From the NCBI GenBank assembly GCA_025057055.1, contig JANWYF010000134.1, positions 2,410-66,409 of the forward strand: DNA of 64,000 bases. Direction: 5' to 3'. The first letter of the stretch is position 1, and the number at the start of each line of letters is the position of its first letter. The notes beneath the pieces are model-generated. The model did no database searches. It was not told the origin of the DNA and saw only the letters and a list, made by a program, of their open reading frames with translations. The stretch is from Rhodovarius sp. GTDB lineage: Bacteria; Pseudomonadota; Alphaproteobacteria; Acetobacterales; Acetobacteraceae. Below are positions 2,364-12,378 of this stretch, in pieces. The translations under genes and the position numbers were made by a program.

Positions 2364-3587
2364 CTATTCGGCCGCCAGCGGCTGGCGCGCCGGCAGCGCG
2401 AGGCTGACCAGCCAGCAGATGCCGAGCATCGCCGCCGCACCCACGAGGCAGGCCACCAGCCCCCCCGCCATGTAGAGCAGGCCGGAGGCCAGCGTGCCCA
2501 GGAAGCGGCCCAGCGCATTGGCCGCATAGTAGAAGCCGACATCCTCGGCCGCCTTCTCGCTCCCCGCATAGGCGAGCACGAGGTAGGAATGGACCGAGGA
2601 GTTGACGGCGAAGAGCACGCCGAAGACACAGAGCCCGATCGGGACGAAAAGGTCCGGCCGCGGCAGCCCGCCCGCCATCATGACGGCGAGCAGCGCGGGC
2701 ACCAGGGCAAGGGCCGCCGACCATTGCCGCGCCGCCGGCACCTCCGCGCTCAGCCCATCGGGGCTGCGCCGCACCAGGGCCGGGGCCGCGGCCTGGATCG
2801 CGCCGTAGCCGATCGTCCAGAGCGCGAGGAAGGCGCCGACCATGGTGAAGGTCCAGCCGCTCGCATAGAGGAACACCGGCAGGCCGACCACGAACCAGAC
2901 ATCCCGCGCCCCGAAGAGGAAGACGCGCGCCGCCGCCAGCAGATTGATGCCCTGGTTCTTGGCGAAGAGCTCGCGCGCCGTGCGCGAGGCGCGCGCCTTG
3001 CCCATCAGCGGCGGGAGGGAGAGCACCACAGCTGCCAGCACGGCCAGCAAGGCCAGGGCCATCGCCCAGAGCGCGCCGCGAAAGCCCAGCACCTCGAGCA
3101 GCAGCCCGCCCAGGAAAAAGCCCGCGCCCTTCATCGCGTTCTTCGAGCCGGTGAAGAAGGCCACCCAGCGGAACAGGCGGCCGCTGACATCGCCCGCCGT
3201 GAGCTTGATGGCGGATTTGCTCGCCGTCTTGGTCAGGTCCTTCGCCACGCCGCACACGCCCTGCGCGACGACGACCCAGACGACCGAGAGTGCCGCGCTC
3301 CAGTCGGGCGAGACCGCCGAGAGCAGCACAAAGCCCAGGATCTGCGCCGAGAGCCCGACCGCCAGCATGCGCGCGATGCCAAAGCGCGTGGCCAGCCAGC
3401 CGCCGATCAGATTGGCCGCGATCCCCGCCGCCTCATAGAGAAGGAAGAGGAGGGCGAGGCTGAAGGGCGAATAGCCGAGCTTGTAGAAATGCAGCAGCAC
3501 CAGCATCCGCAGCGCGCCATCGGTCAGCGTGAAGCCCCAATAGGCGGCGGTGACGATGGCGTAGTTGCGAAGGCCGGCGGCACTCAC
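2364..3587 (-). CDS. arsJ: Organoarsenical (1-arseno-3-phosphoglycerate) efflux MFS permease
   Basis: N-terminus [27 protein letters not shown] and [27 protein letters not shown] typical of ArsJ; GTG start overlaps stop of upstream GAPDH. Confidence 0.9.
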
Positions 3588-4639
3588 AGCCCGACCCTCT
3601 CCATATGGCAGGCGAGATCAACCATGCGGCAAGCATAGCCCATCTCGTTGTCGTACCATGCATAGACCTTGAGCATGGTGCCGTCGGTGACCATGGTCGA
3701 GGGTGCATCGACGATCGAACTGCGCGTATCGCGCGCATAATCGGCCGAGACGAGAGGCCGCGTCTCATAGCCCAGGATGCCGGCGAGCGGCCCGGCGGCG
3801 GCGGCGGCGAAAAGGGCGTTGACCTCCGCCTCGGTGGTGGCGCGCTGCAGTTCGAAGACGCAGTCCGTCAGGCTGGCATTGAGCACCGGCGCGCGCACCG
3901 CATGACCGTTCAGCTTGCCCTTGAGCTCCGGGTAGATCAGCCCGATCGCGGTCGCGCTGCCGGTGGTGGTGGGGGCGAGCGAGAGCATGGCGCTGCGCGC
4001 ACGCCTCAGGTCCTTGTGCGGCGCATCCACCACCACATTGGTGTTGGTCGGGTCATGGATGGTGGTGATCTGCCCGTGGCGGATGCCGATCGCCTCATGC
4101 ACGACCTTGACCACCGGCGCGAGGCAATTGGTGGTGCAGGAGGCGGCGGTGACGATCGGATGCCGCGCCGGGTCGTAGAGGTGCTCGTTCACCCCCACCA
4201 CCACATTGAGCACCGAATCGTATTTGACCGGTGCTGCCACGATCACGCGCTTGGCGCCGCGGTCGAGATGGCCCTGCAGCGTCTCGGGCGAGAGGAACTT
4301 GCCGGTGCATTCCAGCACCACATCGACGCCGAGATCACCCCAAGGGATCAGCTCCGGCTTCGGGTATTCGCTGAAGGTCAGGCGGCGGTTGCCGATGCGG
4401 ATCGCGCTGTTATCCTCGGCCACGATGCTGGTGCGCCAGCGCCCCTGCACGCTGTCGAACTCGAGCAGATGCGCGGTGGCGGCGGCACCGCCCTTGACCT
4501 CGTTGAGGTGGACGACCTCGAGCCGGTTGCCGGCGCGCGGATCATCGGCCGGCCGTTCCGCCGCCCCCATGGCCGCGCGCAAGGCCAGCCGTCCGATCCG
4601 ACCCATGCCGTTGATGCCCACCCGCATGCGAACCCCCAT
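3584..4639 (-). CDS. ArsJ-associated glyceraldehyde-3-phosphate dehydrogenase (start at 4639 or 4627)
   Basis: [10 protein letters not shown] Rossmann motif, [10 protein letters not shown] catalytic Cys, WYDNE; stop overlaps arsJ start and gene follows arsR-arsC. Confidence 0.9.
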
Positions 4640-4666
4640 CTCCCGGTGCACGGACGCCAAAGCCCC

Positions 4667-5536
4667 TCACGCCCGCGCGGCGGCGGGGTGCGCCAGCTCG
4701 TCGAGCCGCGCCTTGAGCGCGATGCGATCGAGCGAGGCGAAGGGCAAGGCGACGAAGATCTCGATCCTCCGGCGCAGGCCGGCATAGAGCTCGTTGAGCA
4801 GGCTTGCCCGCTCGGCGGCATTGCCGGTGAACTTGGCCGGATCGGGCAGCGGCCAGGCGGCGGTGATGGTGGTCTCGCCGAAGTCGGGGCAGCGCTGGCC
4901 GGCCCGCGGGTCGCACAGCGCGATCACGAAATCCATCCGGGGCGCGTTCGGCTCCATGAACAGTTCCCAGGATTTGCTCGACAAGCCGGAGACGTCATGG
5001 CCCAGCGCCGAGAGCTGGGCGATCACCTCCGGCATCGGCCCCTCGGGCGCCGGGGCGGAGCCGGCCGAATAGGCCCGGAACCGGCCCGCACCCACCTTGT
5101 TGAGGATCGCCTCCGCCATGATCGAGCGGGCGGAATTGCGGGTGCAGAGGAACAGCACGTTGAACGGCGCATCGGCCATGGAAGCCTCCCTCGGATGATG
5201 TTCTGCTCTGGCGCGCGGCAGCAGGGAGGCGAGGTCGCCGCAGCGCCCCGCATCACCTGCGCAGCAGGCCTCGGCGAGGAAGGCGAAGAGGTCGCGCAGC
5301 GCGGCGATGGCGGCGGCGTAGATCAGCTGCCGCCCCTGCCGCCGTGCCGCGATCAGCCCAGCCCCCTCCAGCGCGCGGAGATGAAAGGAGAGGGTGGAGG
5401 GCGCCACGCCGAGGCGCTGCGCGATCTCCCCTGCCGGCAGGCCGTTCGGGCCCTCGGCCAGCAGCAGCCTGAGCAGCTCGAGCCGCGTCGGCTGGCCCAG
5501 GGCGGTGAAGCCCGCCGCTGCCTGATCCCTGTCCAT
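4667..5536 (-). CDS. ArsR repressor-ArsC arsenate reductase fusion
   Basis: N-terminal ArsR HTH (LGQPTRLELLRLL...PSTLSFHL...L..AGL) ending in CCAGDAGRC; C-terminal LMW-PTP fold CTRNSARS (CX5R) plus ALCD....CP redox cysteines. Confidence 0.9.
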   Translation of the reverse strand: MDRDQAAAGFTALGQPTRLELLRLLLAEGPNGLPAGEIAQRLGVAPSTLSFHLRALEGAGLIAARRQGRQLIYAAAIAALRDLFAFLAEACCAGDAGRCGDLASLLPRARAEHHPREASMADAPFNVLFLCTRNSARSIMAEAILNKVGAGRFRAYSAGSAPAPEGPMPEVIAQLSALGHDVSGLSSKSWELFMEPNAPRMDFVIALCDPRAGQRCPDFGETTITAAWPLPDPAKFTGNAAERASLLNELYAGLRRRIEIFVALPFASLDRIALKARLDELAHPAAARA

Positions 5537-5537
5537 G

Positions 5538-5593
5538 GTTCCATCCTACCGGAAGCCTCAGCTTTCGGTGTGATGCTTCCATGACAATCGAAG
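5538..5593 (-). promoter_or_regulatory. Two tandem imperfect palindromes (candidate ArsR operators) next to a TTGACT -35 element
   Basis: Minus strand CTTCGATTGTCATGGAAG (5576-5593) and CTTCCGGTAGGATGGAAC (5538-5555); TTGACT at 5592-5597. Confidence 0.55.
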
Positions 5594-5917
5594 TCAATCC
5601 GAGGGCGGCACCGGCCCGCGGGTGATGGCCGTCAGCGGCCCGTTGACGAAGCGATAGGTCGCCTCGATCGGGCCGATCCCCTGGGCCGACAGCCGCGCGG
5701 CATGCATGGCGTGATAGGCCTGCGCGGCCGGCAGGCTCTCGAACAGATAGATCCCGCCCGACCGGCCTTCGGCCTCGTGGCGGGTCCAGATCTTCCAGAT
5801 CAGCCCGGGCTCCTGGGCGATGCTCTCGGCCAGCGCGCGCAGCGCCCGCGCCTGCTCCTCCCCGCCTGGAGGGCGGGCGGGGAAATCCATGATCAGCAGG
5901 ACCGGCTCAGCCGCCAT
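5594..5917 (-). CDS. YdhR-family putative monooxygenase (dimeric alpha+beta barrel)
   Basis: 107 aa; LAESIAQEPGLIWKIW...GGIYLFE...A.AY..MH..RL...N.PLTAITRGP resembles E. coli YdhR. Confidence 0.8.
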   Translation of the reverse strand: MAAEPVLLIMDFPARPPGGEEQARALRALAESIAQEPGLIWKIWTRHEAEGRSGGIYLFESLPAAQAYHAMHAARLSAQGIGPIEATYRFVNGPLTAITRGPVPPSD

Positions 5918-6758
5918 AAGCCACCACGCGCTGGCGCTGTTCGCCCAGGCCCTGGATGCCGAGCCGCATGGTCTGTCCGGGCTTGAGGAAGATCGGCTCC
6001 GGCTTCTTGCCGAGCCCCACCCCGGGTGGCGTGCCGGTGAAGATGATATCCCCCGGATGCAGCGTGATGAAATGCGAGACGTAGGAGACGAGCTGGCGGA
6101 CGCTGAAGATCATGGTCCGTGTGTTGCCGGTCTGCATACGCACCCCGTCCACCTCGCAGAACATGTCGAGGTTCTGGGGGTCAGGCACCTCATCCTTGGT
6201 CACCAGCCAGGGGCCGACGGGGCCGAAGGTGTCGGCGCCCTTGCCCTTGTCCCAGGCGCCACCCCGTTCGATCTGCCATTCGCGCTCGCTGACGTCGTTG
6301 CCCACCGCATAGCCCGCGACGTGATCGAGCGCCTCCTCTTCGCTGACGTATCGGGCGGTGGTGCCGATGATGACGCAGAGCTCCACCTCCCAGTCCGTCT
6401 TGCGCGAGTTCTTGGGAATGATCACGTCGTCATAGGGACCGCTGATCGCGCCATTGGCCTTGAGGAAGACGATCGGCTCCTTGGGGATGGGCGAGCCGGT
6501 CTCGGCCGCGTGGTCGGCGTAGTTGAGGCCGATGCAAATGAGCTGGGTGAAGCCCGCCACCGGGCAGCCCAGCCGCGGATGGCCCGGCACCGCCGGCAGC
6601 CCGGCCGGATCGAGGGCGGCGAGCCGCGCCAAACCGGCCGGCGAGAGCACCTCCCCCGCGATGTCGGGCACGATGCCCGAGAGGTCGCGGATCACCCCGG
6701 ACGCATCGAGCATCCCGGGCTTCTCCTGGCCTTTGGGTCCGTAGCGCAGCAGCTTCAT
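5907..6758 (-). CDS. Fumarylacetoacetate hydrolase family protein
   Basis: ICIGLNYADH, EPIVFLK, DWEVEL, NDVSER, W.KGK..DTFGP.GP, TGTPPGVG. Confidence 0.92.
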   Translation of the reverse strand: MKLLRYGPKGQEKPGMLDASGVIRDLSGIVPDIAGEVLSPAGLARLAALDPAGLPAVPGHPRLGCPVAGFTQLICIGLNYADHAAETGSPIPKEPIVFLKANGAISGPYDDVIIPKNSRKTDWEVELCVIIGTTARYVSEEEALDHVAGYAVGNDVSEREWQIERGGAWDKGKGADTFGPVGPWLVTKDEVPDPQNLDMFCEVDGVRMQTGNTRTMIFSVRQLVSYVSHFITLHPGDIIFTGTPPGVGLGKKPEPIFLKPGQTMRLGIQGLGEQRQRVVAYGG

Positions 6759-6871
6759 GCCACTTCCTCCTCATCCTGGCTGGACGGGCGCGCAGCCTGC
6801 CAGCGAAGCCTGCCGCTGCGAAGCCAGGCGGCTTGACCGACAAGCAGGGCGGGCGCACCTGCCGCTGCGGG

Positions 6872-7612
6872 ATGCTGATCGCGCTCTTGGCCGACATCCA
6901 CGCCAATCTCGAGGCGCTCGAGGCCTGCCTCGCCGATGCCGCGGCGCGGGGGGCGGAGCGGCTGGTGCTGCTCGGCGATCTTGTGGGCTACGGCGCCGAC
7001 CCCCTGCCGGTGCTCGCACGCATCCGCGCCCTGGCCGAGGCTGGGGCGGTGGTGCTGCTCGGCAACCATGACGAGGCGGCGCTCAAGGGAGCGGTCGGCT
7101 TCAACCCGGTGGCGGCGCAGGCGATCCGCTGGACCGCAGCCCAGCTCGATGCCTCGGCGCGCGCCTTCCTCTCCGGCCTGCCGCTGACGCATCGGGAGGA
7201 TGGTCTGCTCTTCGTCCATGCCGATGCCTCGGACCCGGCGGGCTGGCGCTATGTCCGCAGCCTGCGCGATGCCGCCGCCTGCCTGGCCGGGACCGATGCG
7301 CGCTTCGTCTTCTGCGGCCATACCCATCTGCCACTGCTCGCCTGCGCCAGCGGCTCGGGCCGCCTCTGCGCGCGTGAGCCGCAGCCGGGTGCGGTCATTC
7401 CGCTCGCGCCGCTGCGCCGGGCGGTGGCGGTGATCGGCGCGGTGGGCCAGCCGCGCGATGGCAACCCCGCCGCCTGCTACGGCCTGCTCGATACCCTGAG
7501 CCTGGACTGCCGCTGGCTGCGCGTGCCCTATGACATCGCCGCGGCGGCGGCCAAGATCCGCGCCGCCGGCCTGCCGGAGAGCCTGGCCGCACGGCTCTTC
7601 CGGGGGCTCTGA
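6872..7612 (+). CDS. Calcineurin-like metallophosphoesterase
   Basis: ADIHAN, GDLVGYG, GNHD, VHA, GHTH, GAVGQPRD motifs; ATG 6872 chosen over upstream TTG. Confidence 0.9.
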   Translation: MLIALLADIHANLEALEACLADAAARGAERLVLLGDLVGYGADPLPVLARIRALAEAGAVVLLGNHDEAALKGAVGFNPVAAQAIRWTAAQLDASARAFLSGLPLTHREDGLLFVHADASDPAGWRYVRSLRDAAACLAGTDARFVFCGHTHLPLLACASGSGRLCAREPQPGAVIPLAPLRRAVAVIGAVGQPRDGNPAACYGLLDTLSLDCRWLRVPYDIAAAAAKIRAAGLPESLAARLFRGL

Positions 7613-7614
7613 AC

Positions 7615-9000
7615 ATGGCGCGGTCGGATCGGGTCATCGGCGGCTTTCCGGTCGGGCGCAAGATCCACACCGGCGGCATGGCCCATCTCTACGAAACCAG
7701 CCATCCGGACTACCCGTTTCCGCTGCTGCTCAAGGTCCCGCGCCTGGCGGAGGGCGAGGATCCGGCCGCCATCGTCGGCTTCGAGATGGAGCAGCTGATC
7801 CTGCCCCGCCTGTCGGGGCCGCATGTGCCCCGTTTCGTCGCTCTCGGCCATGAGCCGATCCCCTTCATCGTGATGGAGCGGATCGCCGGCGCCTCCCTGC
7901 TCGGGCGCCTGCGCGACCTGCCTCTGCCGCCCGAGGAGGTGGCGGCGATCGGCGCCAAGGTCGCCGATGCGCTGGATTCGCTGCACCGGCAGGGCTGCGT
8001 GCATCTCGACATCAAGCCCTCCAACATCCTGATCGCCGATTCCGACGGGCGCGCCGTGCTCGTTGATTTCGGCCTTGCCCATCACGCGCGCCTGCCCGAC
8101 CTGATGAGCGAGGAGTTCCGCCTGCCCTACGGCACCGCCCCCTATATGGCGCCGGAACAGGTGCTCGGCGTACGCGGCGATCCGGCCTCGGACATCTTTG
8201 CCCTCGGCGCGCTGCTCTATTTCTTTGCCACCCATGTCCGGCCCTTCGGCGACCCGGCCTCGCTGAAGGGGCTCAAGGCCCGCATCTGGTCGGACCCGCT
8301 GCCCCCGCGGGCGCGCGAAGCGGCGATCCCGCCCTGGCTGCAGGAGGTGATCCTGCGCTGCCTCGAGGTTGACCCGGCACGCCGTTTTCCGACCGCCGCG
8401 CAGCTTGCCTGGGCGCTGCGCCACCCGGACCAGCTCGTGCTGACCGAACGCGCCCGACGTCTGCGCCGCAGCCCCTGGACCGAGCGCCTGCGCCGCCGCC
8501 TGCGGCTGCACGAGACGGCGGCGAAGCTGCGCCGGCCCATCCCGCAGGGGCCCGAGGCGGAAGCGCCGATCGTCGCAGTGGCGCTCGATCTCGACGAACT
8601 GCCGGAGGCGCTCTCGGAGGCGTTGCAGCGGACGGTGCGCCATGTCATGTCCGCGCTGCCCGGGGCGCGGCTTGCCTGCATTCATGTGCTCAAGCAGCAT
8701 CTGGTACGCGCCGATACCACGCTCGACGAGGAAGGACGGAACAAGCATCTGCAGCGCCTGATCGGGCTGCGGCACTGGGCTCGGCCGCTCGGCCTGCCCG
8801 AGGAGCGGCTGACCCACCATGTGCTGGAAGCGGTCAGCCCCGCCGCGGCCCTGATCGAGTTCGCCCAGCAGAACCGGGTCGATCACATCGTCATGGGCGC
8901 GCGCAGCGTGAGCTTCACTCGCCGCATGCTGGGCAGCGTGGCGGCCGAGGTGGCGCGCGATGCGCCCTGCACCGTCACGGTCGTGCGCGCCCGCCCCTGA
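7615..9000 (+). CDS. Ser/Thr protein kinase (Hanks type) fused to C-terminal universal stress protein (USP) domain
   Basis: TGGMAHLY, LLKVP, HLDIKPSN, DFG, GTAPYMAPEQ, DIFALG; C-terminal IVAVALD...IVMGAR...LGSVAAEV...PCTVTVVR USP pattern; 2 nt after phosphoesterase stop. Confidence 0.9.
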   Translation: MARSDRVIGGFPVGRKIHTGGMAHLYETSHPDYPFPLLLKVPRLAEGEDPAAIVGFEMEQLILPRLSGPHVPRFVALGHEPIPFIVMERIAGASLLGRLRDLPLPPEEVAAIGAKVADALDSLHRQGCVHLDIKPSNILIADSDGRAVLVDFGLAHHARLPDLMSEEFRLPYGTAPYMAPEQVLGVRGDPASDIFALGALLYFFATHVRPFGDPASLKGLKARIWSDPLPPRAREAAIPPWLQEVILRCLEVDPARRFPTAAQLAWALRHPDQLVLTERARRLRRSPWTERLRRRLRLHETAAKLRRPIPQGPEAEAPIVAVALDLDELPEALSEALQRTVRHVMSALPGARLACIHVLKQHLVRADTTLDEEGRNKHLQRLIGLRHWARPLGLPEERLTHHVLEAVSPAAALIEFAQQNRVDHIVMGARSVSFTRRMLGSVAAEVARDAPCTVTVVRARP

Positions 9001-9014
9001 TGCGCGCCGTGCCG

Positions 9015-9041
9015 CCCCGGCCGCCGCGGGGGCGGCCGGGG
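9015..9041 (+). terminator. GC hairpin after kinase-USP gene
   Basis: Perfect 11-bp stem CCCCGGCCGCC/GGCGGCCGGGG with 5-nt loop, 14 nt after stop; no U tract. Confidence 0.4.
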
Positions 9042-9180
9042 GTGCTGGTCGGCCGGGGGGCGATCGATGGCTTGCCGCGCCCCGCCAGCCCCGGCGCCGA
9101 GCGCGGCAGGGGCCGGAGCCGGTGAGGGTGATATCCGAGAGCAGGGCGCGGAGGGGGCCGCCCGTCCGGGAGGTGGACCG

Positions 9181-9227
9181 GCTCGCCGCGGGCGTGCCTG
9201 CCGCCTGCACGGCATGCCCGGGCGAGC
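9181..9227 (-). terminator. Long GC hairpin downstream of tRNA-Leu
   Basis: GCTCGCC/GGCGAGC plus CGGGCGTGCC/GGCATGCCCG stem, about 17 bp with one bulge and one mismatch, 11 nt past the tRNA 3' end. Confidence 0.4.
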
Positions 9228-9238
9228 GGCGGCCGTTC

Positions 9239-9320
9239 TAGGGGCGGCCGGACTTGAACCGGCATGGCCTGCGGCCGGGGGATTTTGAGTCCCCTGCGTC
9301 TACCATTCCGCCACGCCCCC
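9239..9320 (-). tRNA. tRNA-Leu (CAA), CCA not encoded
   Basis: GGGGGCG acceptor pairs with CGCCCCT; D loop GGCGGAATGGTAGACGC; anticodon arm GGGGA-CTCAAAA-TCCCC; long variable arm; GGTTCAAGTCC T loop. Confidence 0.95.
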
Positions 9321-9350
9321 GAAGCCGGCGGAGCACCGGGTCTGTGCCCC

Positions 9351-10517
9351 TTACCACGCCGCGCCAGCCCAGGCGAGGCGCCCCGGCAGTTCGCGGATGC
9401 GCGCCTCCTCGACATTGGCGAAGGCGAGGCGCAGGTGCCGTTCCTGCCCCGGGCCGAAGAAGGGGCCGGGCAGGCAGAGCAGCCCGTGCTCCACCGCCAG
9501 GCGTTCGGCCATGGCCAGGGCGTCGGGCGCCTCTCGCGGCAGGCGGACATAGGCGAAATAAGCGCCGATGGAGTCGAGCCGCCAACCGGGAAGCTGGCCC
9601 AGGGCCTCCCGCGCTGCCTGGGCGCGGCCGGCCATGATGGCGCGGTTGGCGGCGCGCCATTCGGCCAGCGCGGGCACCGCCCAGGCGAGGGCGGCCTGAC
9701 CCGGCCGGGCGGGGCAGATCTGGAAACTGTCGAGCGCCTTCATCAGCGCCTCCCGCACCGCCCCGCCCGCCACCACCGCGCCCAGGCGTTGGCCGGGAAT
9801 GCAATAGGCCTTGGAGAAGCTGTAGAGCTGCACCAGACGCTCCGGCCAGCCGGCCTCGCCGAACAGGGTATGGGGCGGTGCGTCATCGGCCAGGAAATCG
9901 CGGTAGGTCTCATCCAGCACGAGCCAGACGCCCGCCGCCGCGGCGGCGGCGGCGATGCGCGCCAGCACCTCGGCCGGATAGACCGCCCCGGTCGGATTGT
10001 TCGGCGTGACCAGCACGAGCGCCGAGAGGCCGGGCAGCAGCGCCGCCACTCGGTCGGGGTCGGGGATGAAACCCTCCTCCGGCAGGCAGGGGATGGGCAC
10101 CGGCACCGCGCCCTGCATCAGCAGCGTCATCTGGTGGTTGAAATACCATGGCGTGGGCAGGCCGACCCGCGCGCCGGGGCCGGCCAGGGCCGCCATCACC
10201 ATCGCGAAGGCGAGGTTGCAGCCGGCCGTGATCGCCACCTGGTCGGGCGCGATGGCGGCGCCGTAGCGGGCCGACAGATCGGCCGCGACGGCTTCGCGCA
10301 GCGCGGCATCACCCTCGATCGGGCCATAGGATGCCAGTGCCGGATCGGCCGCCGCCGCGCCGAGGCGCGCAAGCAGTGCCGGATGCGGCGGATAGCCCGG
10401 CACGGCCTGGGTCATGTCGAGGAGCGGCGCGGTGCCGCGATAGCGCGCAGCCCAATGCCGGACGGCGGGAATCGGCGGTTCGGGCGTGGCCAGGATGGAG
10501 GCGGGCAGGGCGGGCAT
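9351..10517 (-). CDS. Class I/II PLP-dependent aminotransferase
   Basis: TAGCNLAF, VTPNNPTG, LDETYRDF, YSFSKAYCIPGQRLG, LCLPGPFFG...RLAFA. Confidence 0.92.
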   Translation of the reverse strand: MPALPASILATPEPPIPAVRHWAARYRGTAPLLDMTQAVPGYPPHPALLARLGAAAADPALASYGPIEGDAALREAVAADLSARYGAAIAPDQVAITAGCNLAFAMVMAALAGPGARVGLPTPWYFNHQMTLLMQGAVPVPIPCLPEEGFIPDPDRVAALLPGLSALVLVTPNNPTGAVYPAEVLARIAAAAAAAGVWLVLDETYRDFLADDAPPHTLFGEAGWPERLVQLYSFSKAYCIPGQRLGAVVAGGAVREALMKALDSFQICPARPGQAALAWAVPALAEWRAANRAIMAGRAQAAREALGQLPGWRLDSIGAYFAYVRLPREAPDALAMAERLAVEHGLLCLPGPFFGPGQERHLRLAFANVEEARIRELPGRLAWAGAAW

Positions 10518-10574
10518 GGGCGGAGTAGCCGGCCCCCGCCGCGCCTGGTCAAGCCCGCCCCCCGTGCCTGCTGC

Positions 10575-12119
10575 TCAGAAGGCGGTGCGCAGCCGCAGGG
10601 CGAAGAGGTGCACCGGCCCGCGATCGGCGTTGTAGCCGGGATTGACCGCGAGCTGATAGTTGAGAGCCATGTTGAGCCCGGCGGCGAGGCGGATGTCGTA
10701 ATAGGCCTCGGTCACCCATTCCGGCCGGTAGCGCAGCTTGCCATCGCCGGTGATGAAGCCGATCCCCCCCTGGGCGAGGTAGCGCCGGCGCCCTTCGCTG
10801 GCAAAGCCCACATTGAAGCCGAGGCCGAGCGTATCCTCCGGCCGGCCCCAGCGCTGGCCCTGGATCGCAACGCCGCCGCTGAAGGCCAGGTCCATCTCGG
10901 TGAACATCCAGTTCTGGGTGCGCCCGTCATTCCACGAGAAGCGGCCGAAGACGCCCCAGTCGGGCCCCATCTCCTGATCGAAGCTGACCGCGATGTTGTG
11001 CTTGAGGCGCCGGCGTGTCGGGTTGGCCTCGAAGGAGCCGCCGGCCAGCAGCTCTCCCCAGCTCGACTGCCGGGTGCGAGAGGCGCCATAGATCAGCCGC
11101 ACGGCCCCCTCTCGCCCGTTGATCTGCCAGAAGCGCTCCAGGCTGCCGAGGATCTGCCAGGCCGCGAAGGGGGAGGGATCGAGCGGCAGGGAGTTCACCT
11201 CGCGCGCCACTTGGAAGGCGCCGACCCGGACCGCCCAGCGGCCGTTCTCCCACTCGAAGGTCGCACCATTGGTGAAGCCGCGCGCATCGGCCGCATAGTC
11301 GAAGGCGGCACCACCCACCAAGGCCCAGTTCAGGAACTGGGTGCGCGCATCATGGGCGTAGCGGTTGTCATCGAAGATGTCCCAGACCGAGAAACGGCCG
11401 AGGGTGATCGTGATCCGCTCGGTGGGCAGCGGCCGGGTGAAGCGCAGAGGGTCGTTGTCCGGCGGGCTGGTTTCGGCCGACAGCGCAATGGTCTGGCGCA
11501 GGAACAGGCGCGGAATCCAGGCGACGGGCGGCGTGCTGCCCAGGCGGAAGGCCTCATTGTTCGGAAAGGCCGCGATGCCGACCGAGTTGGACAGGCCGAA
11601 GCCGCGCGTGACCGAGGGGTTGAAGATGATCTCCGCCCCCTCCCACAAGGCGCGGCCGAGGATCAGGTCGGCCGAGAAGGTGTTGCGCGCATTGGGTGCG
11701 GGGTGCAGCGACCCCCCCGCCTGATAGGGCGAGCGGAAACGCGGGTGCCCCTGCAGGATGAAGGTGGCCTGGCCGCGGATGATCCAGCCCTGTTCCTCCA
11801 GCCTATCCTGCAGCGCCGCGAGATCGGGAAACAGCGCGGCCTCGGGCGGGCCGATATTGGGCACGCCCGGAGAGCCGAAGCGGCCAGTCTGCGCGGCGGC
11901 TGGGGCGGCCAGCGAGCCGCCTCCGGCCAGGGCGAGGAGGACCAGCGCAGCACGCACCCCGCGCCGCCCCGCCCGCCGCATCCCGCCACCCTCGCCGGCC
12001 GCAGCGCCGCGGCGGGGAAGGAGCACGCGATTCCCCTCGGCCAGCCCAGCCCGTGGTGCGGTGCGTGGAGTTGCGGCTTGTCCGGCCGCCAGGGCGGTGG
12101 TGGTCCTGCCGAAGCTCAT
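10575..12119 (-). CDS. Outer-membrane carbohydrate-selective (OprB family) / MnoP-like porin
   Basis: Signal-like LVLLALAGGGSLAAPAAAQ, GQATFILQGHP, FPNNEAFR, FDDNRYAHD.RTQFLNW, DYAADARG, EAYYD, NPGYNADRGP, terminal Phe; strong SD before ATG 12119, alternative start near MRRAGRR. Confidence 0.8.
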   Translation of the reverse strand: MSFGRTTTALAAGQAATPRTAPRAGLAEGNRVLLPRRGAAAGEGGGMRRAGRRGVRAALVLLALAGGGSLAAPAAAQTGRFGSPGVPNIGPPEAALFPDLAALQDRLEEQGWIIRGQATFILQGHPRFRSPYQAGGSLHPAPNARNTFSADLILGRALWEGAEIIFNPSVTRGFGLSNSVGIAAFPNNEAFRLGSTPPVAWIPRLFLRQTIALSAETSPPDNDPLRFTRPLPTERITITLGRFSVWDIFDDNRYAHDARTQFLNWALVGGAAFDYAADARGFTNGATFEWENGRWAVRVGAFQVAREVNSLPLDPSPFAAWQILGSLERFWQINGREGAVRLIYGASRTRQSSWGELLAGGSFEANPTRRRLKHNIAVSFDQEMGPDWGVFGRFSWNDGRTQNWMFTEMDLAFSGGVAIQGQRWGRPEDTLGLGFNVGFASEGRRRYLAQGGIGFITGDGKLRYRPEWVTEAYYDIRLAAGLNMALNYQLAVNPGYNADRGPVHLFALRLRTAF

Positions 12120-12188
12120 CTGTCCGCCTCTCCTCTGCTTCCCGGACGCAGTCGCGTGCCGGGCGAGGCGGTGGCAGGCGCTTCAGCC

Positions 12189-12378
12189 GCCCATGCTCTC
12201 CGCCCGGACCAACACGCAGCGCGTCCGATCGGGGTATCTGCCGACGGTGCTGGACCGCGCTGCGCTGTCGGCTGCGCATCCGCCGCCGGGCTGTCGACGA
12301 CTGCCCATGCTCTCCCGGGCCTTGGCCCTTGCCGCTTTGTAATGCGGGCCGGTTAGGCGGGGCGAGGGCGGCTGTCAA
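12189..12378 (-). promoter_or_regulatory. Porin promoter (TTGACA -35) and long structured 5' leader
   Basis: TTGACA at 12373-12378, TAACCG 17 nt downstream; 13-nt direct repeat and multi-stem pairing in the leader. Confidence 0.45.

Follow-up and report, generated by a model that had tools for sequence, protein, structure and literature searches.

The 64,000-nucleotide stretch of Rhodovarius sp. DNA analysed here (assembly GCA_025057055.1, contig JANWYF010000134.1, positions 2,410 to 66,409 of the forward strand; hereafter the window) encodes two adjacent, co-directional genes whose products are a calcineurin-like metallophosphoesterase (MPE) and a Hanks-type kinase with a C-terminal universal stress protein (USP) domain (kinase-USP). 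A preliminary description of this DNA had placed a soluble kinase-USP 2 nt behind the MPE, an arrangement on which the open reading frames (ORFs), the Pfam matches and the stop and start codons agree. The pair is real and strictly conserved, and is best seen as a variant of the kinase/phosphatase pair with a USP module. Its features are the following:

6759..6871, no strand: intergenic region between the MPE gene and the divergent FAA-hydrolase gene, presumed promoter site
6872..7612, plus strand: MPE gene (246 aa), calcineurin-like metallophosphoesterase of the 3RQZ/SapH (ApaH-like, COG0639-type) clade, from Pfam, AlphaFold and Foldseek
7613..7614, plus strand: 2-nt spacer between MPE stop and kinase start
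7615..9000, plus strand: kinase-USP gene (461 aa), Hanks-type kinase with C-terminal USP, from Pfam
7636..8439, plus strand: kinase domain, residues ~8-275, from Pfam, the PknB match and Foldseek
8440..8562, plus strand: Arg-rich helical linker, residues ~276-316, from AlphaFold, partly at low confidence
8563..8988, plus strand: USP domain with degenerate ATP-binding motif, residues ~317-458, from Pfam Usp

The longest frame for the MPE is an ORF at 6833..7612 (+). Its start is most likely ATG 6872, the one given in the preliminary description, because Met1 then lines up with the starts of the homologues, and in 45 of 80 related loci the longest ORF opens exactly at the Met1-equivalent; the gene caller instead chose TTG 6833 (P0271, 259 aa). 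The MPE gene closes with a TGA ending at 7612 and the kinase ATG stands at 7615, preceded by 9-13 nt by a GGGGG stretch inside the MPE 3' end. No transmembrane (TM) segment was detected in either protein (maximum Kyte-Doolittle 19-residue mean 1.29), and both AlphaFold models are globular, with a mean pLDDT of 96 for the MPE and 85 for the kinase-USP. The top homologues of both proteins come from Acetobacteraceae (Roseococcus, Falsiroseomonas, Rubritepida).

The MPE matched Metallophos_2 (PF12850, 1.2e-13) and Metallophos (PF00149, 8e-11) in Pfam, both above the cut-off. Its metal-binding and catalytic motifs had been described as intact, and the comparison of 53 homologous sequences bears this out: D8, H10, D36, N65, H66, H116, H150 and H152 are invariant, and with them the five binuclear-metal-site motifs that place the protein in the calcineurin-like metallophosphoesterase superfamily (D8-I-H10, G35-D36, G64-N65-H66-D67, H116 and G149-H150-T-H152), as well as the clade-specific G192-Q-P-R195-D196 and the C-terminal L234-P235 helices. 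The sole strong solved relative was 3RQZ (4.7e-39, residues 2-245, 38% identity), a structural genomics entry from Sphaerobacter thermophilus that shares GDxVGYG, GNHD, GHTH, GxVGQPRDGDPRA and the C-terminal GLPE helices with the MPE. Foldseek TM-scores were highest for 3RQZ (0.89), Pyrococcus 1NNW/2GJU (0.82) and SapH/Spr1479 (0.77, 22-24% identity), and fell to ~0.5 for PP1, PP2A, PP5 and calcineurin (14-16% identity for PP1/PP2A/PP5), 0.47-0.49 for ApaH, 0.45 for YfcE and 0.42-0.45 for Rv0805 (16% identity). With full-length similarity that includes the C-terminal helical extension, the MPE belongs to the 3RQZ/SapH/PF1291 sub-clade, in which SapH is the only member with a defined biochemical function.

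Other family assignments were tried and rejected. Identity with ApaH fails on the equivalog scores (NF001204, 34.3 bits against a cut-off of 176; TIGR00668, 19.3 against 222.85), and the resemblance to ApaH/PrpE-type enzymes is a weak N-terminal motif match, the ApaH models covering just the N-terminal third of the MPE and the ApaH structures likewise matching weakly at the N-terminus. A class III cyclic nucleotide monophosphate (cNMP) phosphodiesterase of the CpdA/Rv0805 kind was discarded on low fold and sequence similarity and the lack of an NCBIfam match. The label of PPP-type phosphatase used in the preliminary description did not hold: the motifs read ADIHAN, GDLVGYG and GNHD rather than GDxHG, GDxVDRG and GNHE, and because GDLVGYG replaces GDxVDRG and the TM-score to PP1/PP2A/PP5 is ~0.5, against 0.89 to 3RQZ, the MPE is not a classical PPP enzyme. 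It is a calcineurin-superfamily enzyme of the ApaH-like clade and not a demonstrated PPP-type protein phosphatase.

The kinase domain matched Pfam Pkinase (PF00069) at 2.4e-27 over residues 57-263 (96.4 bits, cut-off 31.7), its top solved relative was PknB (1.8e-28), and it adopts a bilobal kinase fold with a TM-score to PknB, normalised to the target, of 0.81-0.84. Together with the Pfam Usp match and the lack of a TM segment, this agrees with its earlier description as a soluble Hanks-type kinase. The Hanks-type residues are all in place (K40 as the VAIK Lys, E57/E59 in alphaC, D132, N137, D151-F-G153 and A-P180-E181), and K40, E57/E59, H130, D132, K134, N137, D151, G153 and P180-E181-Q182 are invariant among 66 sequences. 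The Gly-rich loop is atypical (H-T-G-G-M-A). Throughout the close kinase family the catalytic loop reads H-L-D instead of H-R-D, which makes the enzyme a non-RD kinase; such kinases are usually independent of activation-loop phosphorylation. The activation segment carries the family-specific signature LPDL...RLPYGTAPYMAPEQ (R-L-P-Y-G-T-A-P-Y-M-A-P-E-Q) and is, with the linker, the low-confidence part of the AlphaFold kinase-USP model. From their conserved residues, both the MPE and the kinase look active.

In the linker, pLDDT values are 58-76 over residues 291-320 and drop below 50 at residues 310-313. The USP domain matched Pfam Usp (PF00582) at 6e-16 over residues 322-458 (59.7 bits, cut-off 24), and residues 319-457 of the model form alternating strand and helix elements in the alpha/beta fold expected of such a domain, with TTHA0895 (1WJG) and UspF as the nearest solved USPs. 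The beta1 Asp (D325) and G428 are retained. The nucleotide-binding motif, by contrast, reads G-A-R-S, eight residues, G-S, departing from the canonical G-2x-G-9x-G(S/T), and more distant relatives retain the Ser of the GS pair but have R, H, K or D in place of its Gly; by sequence motif the domain thus falls outside the ATP-binding USP subclass (MJ0577/UspFG type). USP domains are known to bind nucleotides such as ATP, cAMP or c-di-AMP, and this one had been proposed as a nucleotide reader. That proposal was an assumption which the sequence does not back, as with a degenerate ATP motif nucleotide binding or sensing cannot be taken for granted.

Scanning a single genome for each GTDB species gave at least 564 kinase-USP relatives, of which the best 80 loci were examined (kinase identity 56-77% to the window kinase). 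These comprised 20 Acetobacteraceae-type loci, 25 from Hyphomicrobiales, 7 from Zavarzinia, Elstera and other Rhodospirillales, 7 from unclassified Alpha-/Proteobacteria, 17 from Acidobacteriota (Holophagae/Geothrix, Thermoanaerobaculia), 3 from Desulfuromonadota-like genomes (Geobacter/'Deltaproteobacteria') and 1 from a Phycisphaeraceae metagenome-assembled genome (MAG). An MPE homologue (45-66% identity) accompanied the kinase-USP in all 80, and in 78 it lay directly 5' on the same strand. The stop-to-start distance, after refinement of the start codons, was -4 to +30 nt in 78 of the 80 loci, mostly 2-5 nt. The remotest full-length members of the family in a representative library of 1.84 billion proteins were then aligned, and a second scan seeded with this alignment gave 80 metagenome loci whose kinases are 38-58% identical to that of the window; the MPE was present in each of the 76 with room upstream, bringing the combined co-occurrence to 156/156 informative loci. 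Exceptions to the standard order are rearrangements and not losses: a transporter gene is inserted between the two genes in L031, the MPE gene is upstream on the opposite strand in L122, and it lies 3 kb downstream of the kinase-USP gene in L135. One contig (L108) carries two pairs on opposite strands.

The pairwise distance matrices of MPE and kinase-USP are correlated at r = 0.83, a value reached by 0/500 permutations. Given the complete co-occurrence, the operon-like spacing and this co-divergence, the two genes can with considerable confidence be regarded as a functional unit, that is, a functionally coupled cassette, and the conserved pairing for which the preliminary description had suggested a gene-neighbourhood survey is borne out across phyla. 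That the two genes are unrelated and merely happen to adjoin is effectively refuted by the same data, the pair co-occurring in all 156 loci, with conserved order and spacing, and the two proteins co-diverging while the flanking genes vary. ORF clustering of the 160 loci revealed no conserved third gene (FHA, PP2C or substrate): the near-universal clusters were the pair and antisense ORFs alone, with other flanks varying, and the pair therefore appears sufficient in itself. The Pfam-annotated flanks of the window likewise contain no FHA or PP2C gene, which together with the hydropathy profiles agrees with the earlier remark that a TM sensor and an FHA protein are missing; PP2C is also absent from the annotated plasmid loci and the recurrent neighbour clusters. 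One protein of the representative library (P0139, 608 aa) appears to have an N-terminal MPE fragment fused to the kinase-USP. Its MPE part corresponds to the first ~148 residues, with GNHG for GNHD and no GHxH; a genuine fusion, a degenerate MPE or an error of assembly or gene calling would each account for it.

The regions 5' of the MPE gene gave a lead to the regulation of the pair. Exact TTGA-N6-TCAA sequences, mostly TTGAT-N4-ATCAA, were found in 21/138 loci against 0.1 expected, and FixK/FNR boxes matching at least 9/10 positions in 20/140 upstream regions against 0.45 expected. The boxes lie mostly at -56 to -65 from the MPE start, the position expected for a class II FNR/FixK promoter, and at -99 in L060. 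They belong to Bradyrhizobium, Afipia, Xanthobacteraceae, Hyphomicrobiaceae, Aestuariivirga, Gellertiella and related metagenome contigs (L041, L051, L053, L058-L061, L077, L080, L112, L121, L127, L132, L139, L142, L146-L148, L154 and L160), and their presence suggests low-oxygen induction of the operon in Hyphomicrobiales-type lineages. USP genes are members of alphaproteobacterial FNR/FixK regulons (PMC2908626; PMC6515984). A predicted alphaproteobacterial FixK regulon also includes an orthogroup, RSP0470, named 'putative kinase' (PMC2908626), which may belong to the kinase-USP family. The pair genes were not found in the portion of the B. diazoefficiens microoxia supplements that was covered. 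Across the loci, no EcfG promoter (GGAAC-N16-17-CGTT) or sigma-54 box was matched 5' of the MPE gene, and the CRP box scan gave 2 matches. The window's own intergenic region, 6759..6871, has neither a FixK/FNR box (best 6/10) nor an EcfG box, and the Acetobacteraceae loci including the window share no upstream motif. A TTGATCC(N)GCGCAA-like element (8/10 of the FNR consensus) recurs 73-127 nt 5' of the MPE gene in the Roseomonas-type and related loci L034, L035, L070 and L074, perhaps as a variant site of the CRP/FNR family in relatives among the Acetobacteraceae.

Two kinds of gene recur beside the pair. An MHS-family MFS transporter (TIGR00883-type, ~560 aa, with a ~120-aa insertion) was found in the fetched flanks of 31/160 loci, where a rough estimate of the chance expectation is ~1/160, and the acetyl-CoA synthetase gene acs in 14/160. 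The transporter gene takes at least five arrangements, upstream divergent or co-directional, downstream co-directional or convergent, and between the pair genes (for example L056:2747-4435(-), L118:4699-6402(-) and, between the pair genes, L031:3918-5756(-)), and the loci with either neighbour come from Holophagae, Thermoanaerobaculia, Xanthobacteraceae, Aestuariivirga, Hyphomicrobiales and deltaproteobacterial MAGs. In Rhodobacter sp. CZR27 (L169, NZ_CP023549.1) a row of MFS transporter, adk (adenylate kinase) and acs is divergent from the pair. These data suggest that the uptake and activation of a carboxylate, probably acetate, is a common though not obligatory functional neighbour of the pair. 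Hydropathy was too crude to place the ~120-aa insertion in the cytoplasm or outside and was not used. The Holophagaceae MAG JANYBM01 has two pair loci (L017, L032), both adjoining an MFS transporter and acs.

Relatives of the MPE outside the pair were also compared. In the nearest outgroup clade, of Thermomicrobiales type (L161-L168), whose MPEs are 60-93% identical to 3RQZ and ~38% to that of the window, 6/6 look-ups showed the row mnmG, MPE, stand-alone USP (145-168 aa), TrkA_N and TrkA_N+C, with an MPE-USP gap of 0-60 nt or a 4-nt overlap and no kinase in any of the six. This clade, where a stand-alone USP gene and then TrkA-type K+-transport regulator genes follow the MPE gene in place of a kinase-USP fusion, ties the MPE to USP without a kinase; as the six look-ups share one syntenic lineage, they amount to a single evolutionary observation. 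A special kinship of its stand-alone USP with that of the kinase was rejected (33% identity over 63 residues, like generic USPs). On the Natribaculum breve plasmid CP095393.1, an unannotated stretch (L175:1914-4687 (+)) encodes a tight co-directional trio made up of a Hanks kinase of RD type without USP (285 aa), a protein of 400 aa lacking Pfam matches and, as the last gene, an MPE of 229 aa that is 33% identical to the window MPE and has the same clade motifs. The trio ties the MPE clade to kinases without any USP involved, and may itself represent a separate archaeal kinase/phosphoesterase system, or else one for defence. Remoter MPE homologues (30-41% identity; cyanobacteria, Azospirillum) stand in unrelated contexts. 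A clade tied separately to USPs and to Hanks kinases fits a phosphatase working in a kinase/USP circuit, and fits a pure small-molecule hydrolase less well; overall, the comparative evidence cuts both ways between a cognate phosphatase and a hydrolase of a USP ligand.

In the latter case the MPE would hydrolyse the ligand of the USP domain (Ap4A, ATP, cAMP or a c-di-AMP-like molecule) and the kinase would be the output, the evolutionary course being an ancestral sensor pair of MPE and USP to whose USP a kinase domain was fused later. We consider such a nucleotide switch rather unlikely. In its favour, SapH/Spr1479, the best characterised structural relative (TM 0.77), is an Ap4A/ATP hydrolase and phosphodiesterase of Streptococcus pneumoniae, and the weak N-terminal matches of the MPE to ApaH models and structures, the MPE-USP rows without kinase in 6/6 look-ups and the general nucleotide-binding capacity of USP domains likewise speak for it. 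SapH shares the sub-fold of the MPE at just 22-24% identity and is not known to stand beside a kinase or USP gene. Against the switch, the AMP pocket of SapH is reportedly streptococcus-specific and may not transfer. The 3RQZ-clade rows represent one syntenic lineage (mnmG-MPE-USP-TrkA), the ATP motif of the USP domain is degenerate with the GS-pair Gly lost in distant members, and similarity to class III cNMP phosphodiesterases is low (Rv0805 TM 0.42). A hydrolase of a diffusible ligand, moreover, would need no strict 1:1 translational coupling to its sensor, and on the haloarchaeal plasmid the MPE homologue goes with a USP-less kinase.

A further variant, which we regard as improbable, makes MPE and USP an ancient switch in which a nucleotide on the USP is erased by the MPE acting as a phosphodiesterase or de-AMPylase, with the kinase fused on as output; the USP cargo may be a non-covalent adenine-nucleotide alarmone or a UspG-style covalent adenylyl or phosphoryl adduct. 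If true, oxygen or energy limitation (FixK/FNR) would be connected, by a route not recognised before, to Ser/Thr phosphorylation of proteins for carboxylate uptake and activation, namely the MHS transporter and Acs.

The PADLOC models PD-T4-6 and Mad6 match the kinase domain (best 5.5e-55), and a related MPE lies with a kinase and a third gene on the haloarchaeal plasmid, observations that would suit a defence or toxin-antitoxin-like module with the kinase as growth-arresting effector (PD-T4-6/Stk2-type) and the MPE as antidote. The PADLOC matches, however, cover the generic kinase domain alone and no defence model matches the MPE. With kinase identities of 56-77% across phyla the pair shows high conservation; it is embedded among ordinary metabolic genes and not in defence islands, and in some lineages has a FixK/FNR box typical of physiological regulation, which leaves a defence function very improbable.

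The reading we favour, at roughly even odds, is that the pair is a self-contained phospho-signalling cassette in which the MPE antagonises the kinase-USP. The joint translation of the two genes, the gating by USP, the action of the MPE on phosphoproteins and the targets are inferred, as follows. Because of the 2-nt spacing, MPE and kinase-USP would be co-translated and made in step. The cytoplasmic non-RD kinase, its motifs intact, would be constitutively competent and gated by its C-terminal USP domain rather than by activation-loop phosphorylation, the gating proceeding through dimerisation, through an adenine-nucleotide-type ligand reporting energy or stress, or both. It would phosphorylate Ser/Thr targets, the candidates being the kinase itself or its USP domain and, in loci that have them nearby, the transporter or Acs. 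The binuclear MPE would reset the system, most likely by removing phosphates from the kinase, the USP domain or substrates, and the USP domain may be its docking partner. In Hyphomicrobiales-type lineages a FixK/FNR-type regulator responding to low oxygen would turn the operon on, and the MHS carboxylate transporter, sometimes with acs, near ~1/5 of the loci supplies candidate targets; carboxylate uptake or activation as the output is a tentative suggestion.

For the activity of the MPE, a phosphoprotein phosphatase serving the kinase system falls slightly short of an even chance, hydrolysis of a USP-bound or USP-sensed nucleotide is a clearly less probable option, and the remaining probability goes to other or mixed activities. 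PrpE-like enzymes act on both phosphoproteins and nucleotides. Human CPPED1, a calcineurin-like MPE outside the PPP family, is reported as a Ser/Thr protein phosphatase (PMC8366450).

Several observations count against a phosphatase that antagonises the kinase. The MPE is without GDxVDRG and has a TM-score of just ~0.5 to PP1/PP2A/PP5, its nearest characterised structural relative, SapH, hydrolyses nucleotides (Ap4A/ATP) and phosphodiesters, and the 3RQZ-clade rows point to USP, not kinase, as the primary MPE partner. A non-RD kinase is also less in need of a phosphatase for switching off. At the level of domains, the mirror-tree correlation of the MPE was 0.81 with the kinase and 0.81 with the USP domain (partial correlations 0.28 and 0.26), so that co-divergence favours the kinase no more than the USP. 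As to physiology, the window has no FixK box, MHS transporter or acs, and its DNA was matched solely by hot-spring metagenome DNA runs and by no RNA run.

Most characterised bacterial Ser/Thr phosphatases are of the PPM family (PMC6213207). The window pair resembles the PP2C-kinase operons prpC-prkC, pstP-pknB and stp1-stk1 in that the phosphatase gene is directly 5' of the kinase gene with minimal spacing, in the PknB-like kinase fold and in the logic of an antagonistic pair. It differs in that a binuclear calcineurin-like MPE replaces the PPM/PP2C enzyme, and a soluble non-RD kinase with a cytoplasmic USP domain replaces the TM kinase with PASTA or another extracellular sensor; as the PP2C partner is absent, the pair is not a member of the PknB/PstP-type STK-STP operons. 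A precedent for a non-PP2C partner is Anabaena PCC 7120, where prpA (alr3731), a calcineurin-superfamily phosphatase gene, is reported to adjoin the Hanks kinase gene pknE (Zhang et al. 1998, J Bacteriol). By its description this case is set apart from ours, with PrpA of the PP1/2A/2B type, PknE without USP and a spacing that is not operon-tight. The prpA tag and function are given in PMC12282138.

In the known USP regulators (KdpD-USP, TeaD, plant USP-kinases and Sulfolobus PP2A-UspA) a USP domain is likewise either joined to a signalling enzyme or transporter or associated with one, but none of them combines a Hanks kinase-USP fusion with a dedicated MPE gene, and the plant USP-kinases have the USP at the N terminus. 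The PPP-type PP2A of Sulfolobus acidocaldarius pulls down a USP, which is among its most enriched partners under starvation (PMC7472852; see also bioRxiv 10.64898/2026.08.11.744115), and this is a precedent for phosphatase-USP contact. The kinase plus USP architecture was listed for M. loti and B. japonicum in 2005, with no function (PMC1262709), and the NCBI name for the kinase-USP is 'bifunctional serine/threonine-protein kinase/universal stress protein'. Full-text literature searches found no paper on the MPE/kinase-USP pair or on the function of any member, in line with the earlier remark that no characterised example was known.

Few stress modules are as widespread as USP domains or as poorly understood, and bacterial Hanks kinases have been studied mostly with PP2C partners and extracellular sensors. 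A compact soluble kinase-USP constantly paired with one particular MPE, present in at least 564 species genomes of several phyla, offers a clean two-protein system in which to study what USP domains sense and how an enzyme comes under their control, with low oxygen (from the FixK/FNR box) and acetate or another carboxylate (from the MHS transporter and acs) as leads. Should the MPE be a protein phosphatase, it would define a new bacterial Ser/Thr phosphatase clade and give a function to 3RQZ-type proteins; should it be a nucleotide hydrolase, it would reveal a new USP ligand circuit.

The remaining features around the pair, in a region of ~70% G+C, are the following:

3584-4660, minus strand: GAPDH-like gene, with the ArsR-LMWPc fusion gene directly upstream
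4667-5536, minus strand: fusion of an ArsR-type HTH and a low-molecular-weight phosphatase/ArsC-like domain (ArsR-LMWPc)
5907-6758, minus strand: FAA-hydrolase gene, divergent from the MPE gene
9015..9041, plus strand: GC-only hairpin with an 11-bp stem and a 5-nt loop, possible terminator without a U tract
9239-9320, minus strand: tRNA-Leu(CAA), ~240 nt 3' of the kinase gene

The strong hairpin reported 3' of the kinase gene does exist, with a perfect G/C stem beginning 15 nt past the kinase stop, but the strength attributed to it was not upheld: its folding energy is ordinary for its composition (z = -1.4; 19/200 shuffles fold as well) and a U tract is lacking. A scan of 6500-9400 gave no match to the sigma-70 or terminator consensus, and the tRNA-Leu was the only Rfam hit in 5500-10600. 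By Pfam, the upstream minus-strand neighbours are an FAA-family hydrolase, YdhR and the ArsR-LMWPc fusion, and those downstream, besides the tRNA-Leu(CAA), are an aminotransferase and an OprB porin; these flanking genes look unrelated to the pair. A long ORF at 9264-12356 (+) was dismissed as a spurious frame antisense to the aminotransferase and porin genes. The ArsR-LMWPc fusion and the GAPDH-like gene together resemble an arsenic-resistance arrangement.

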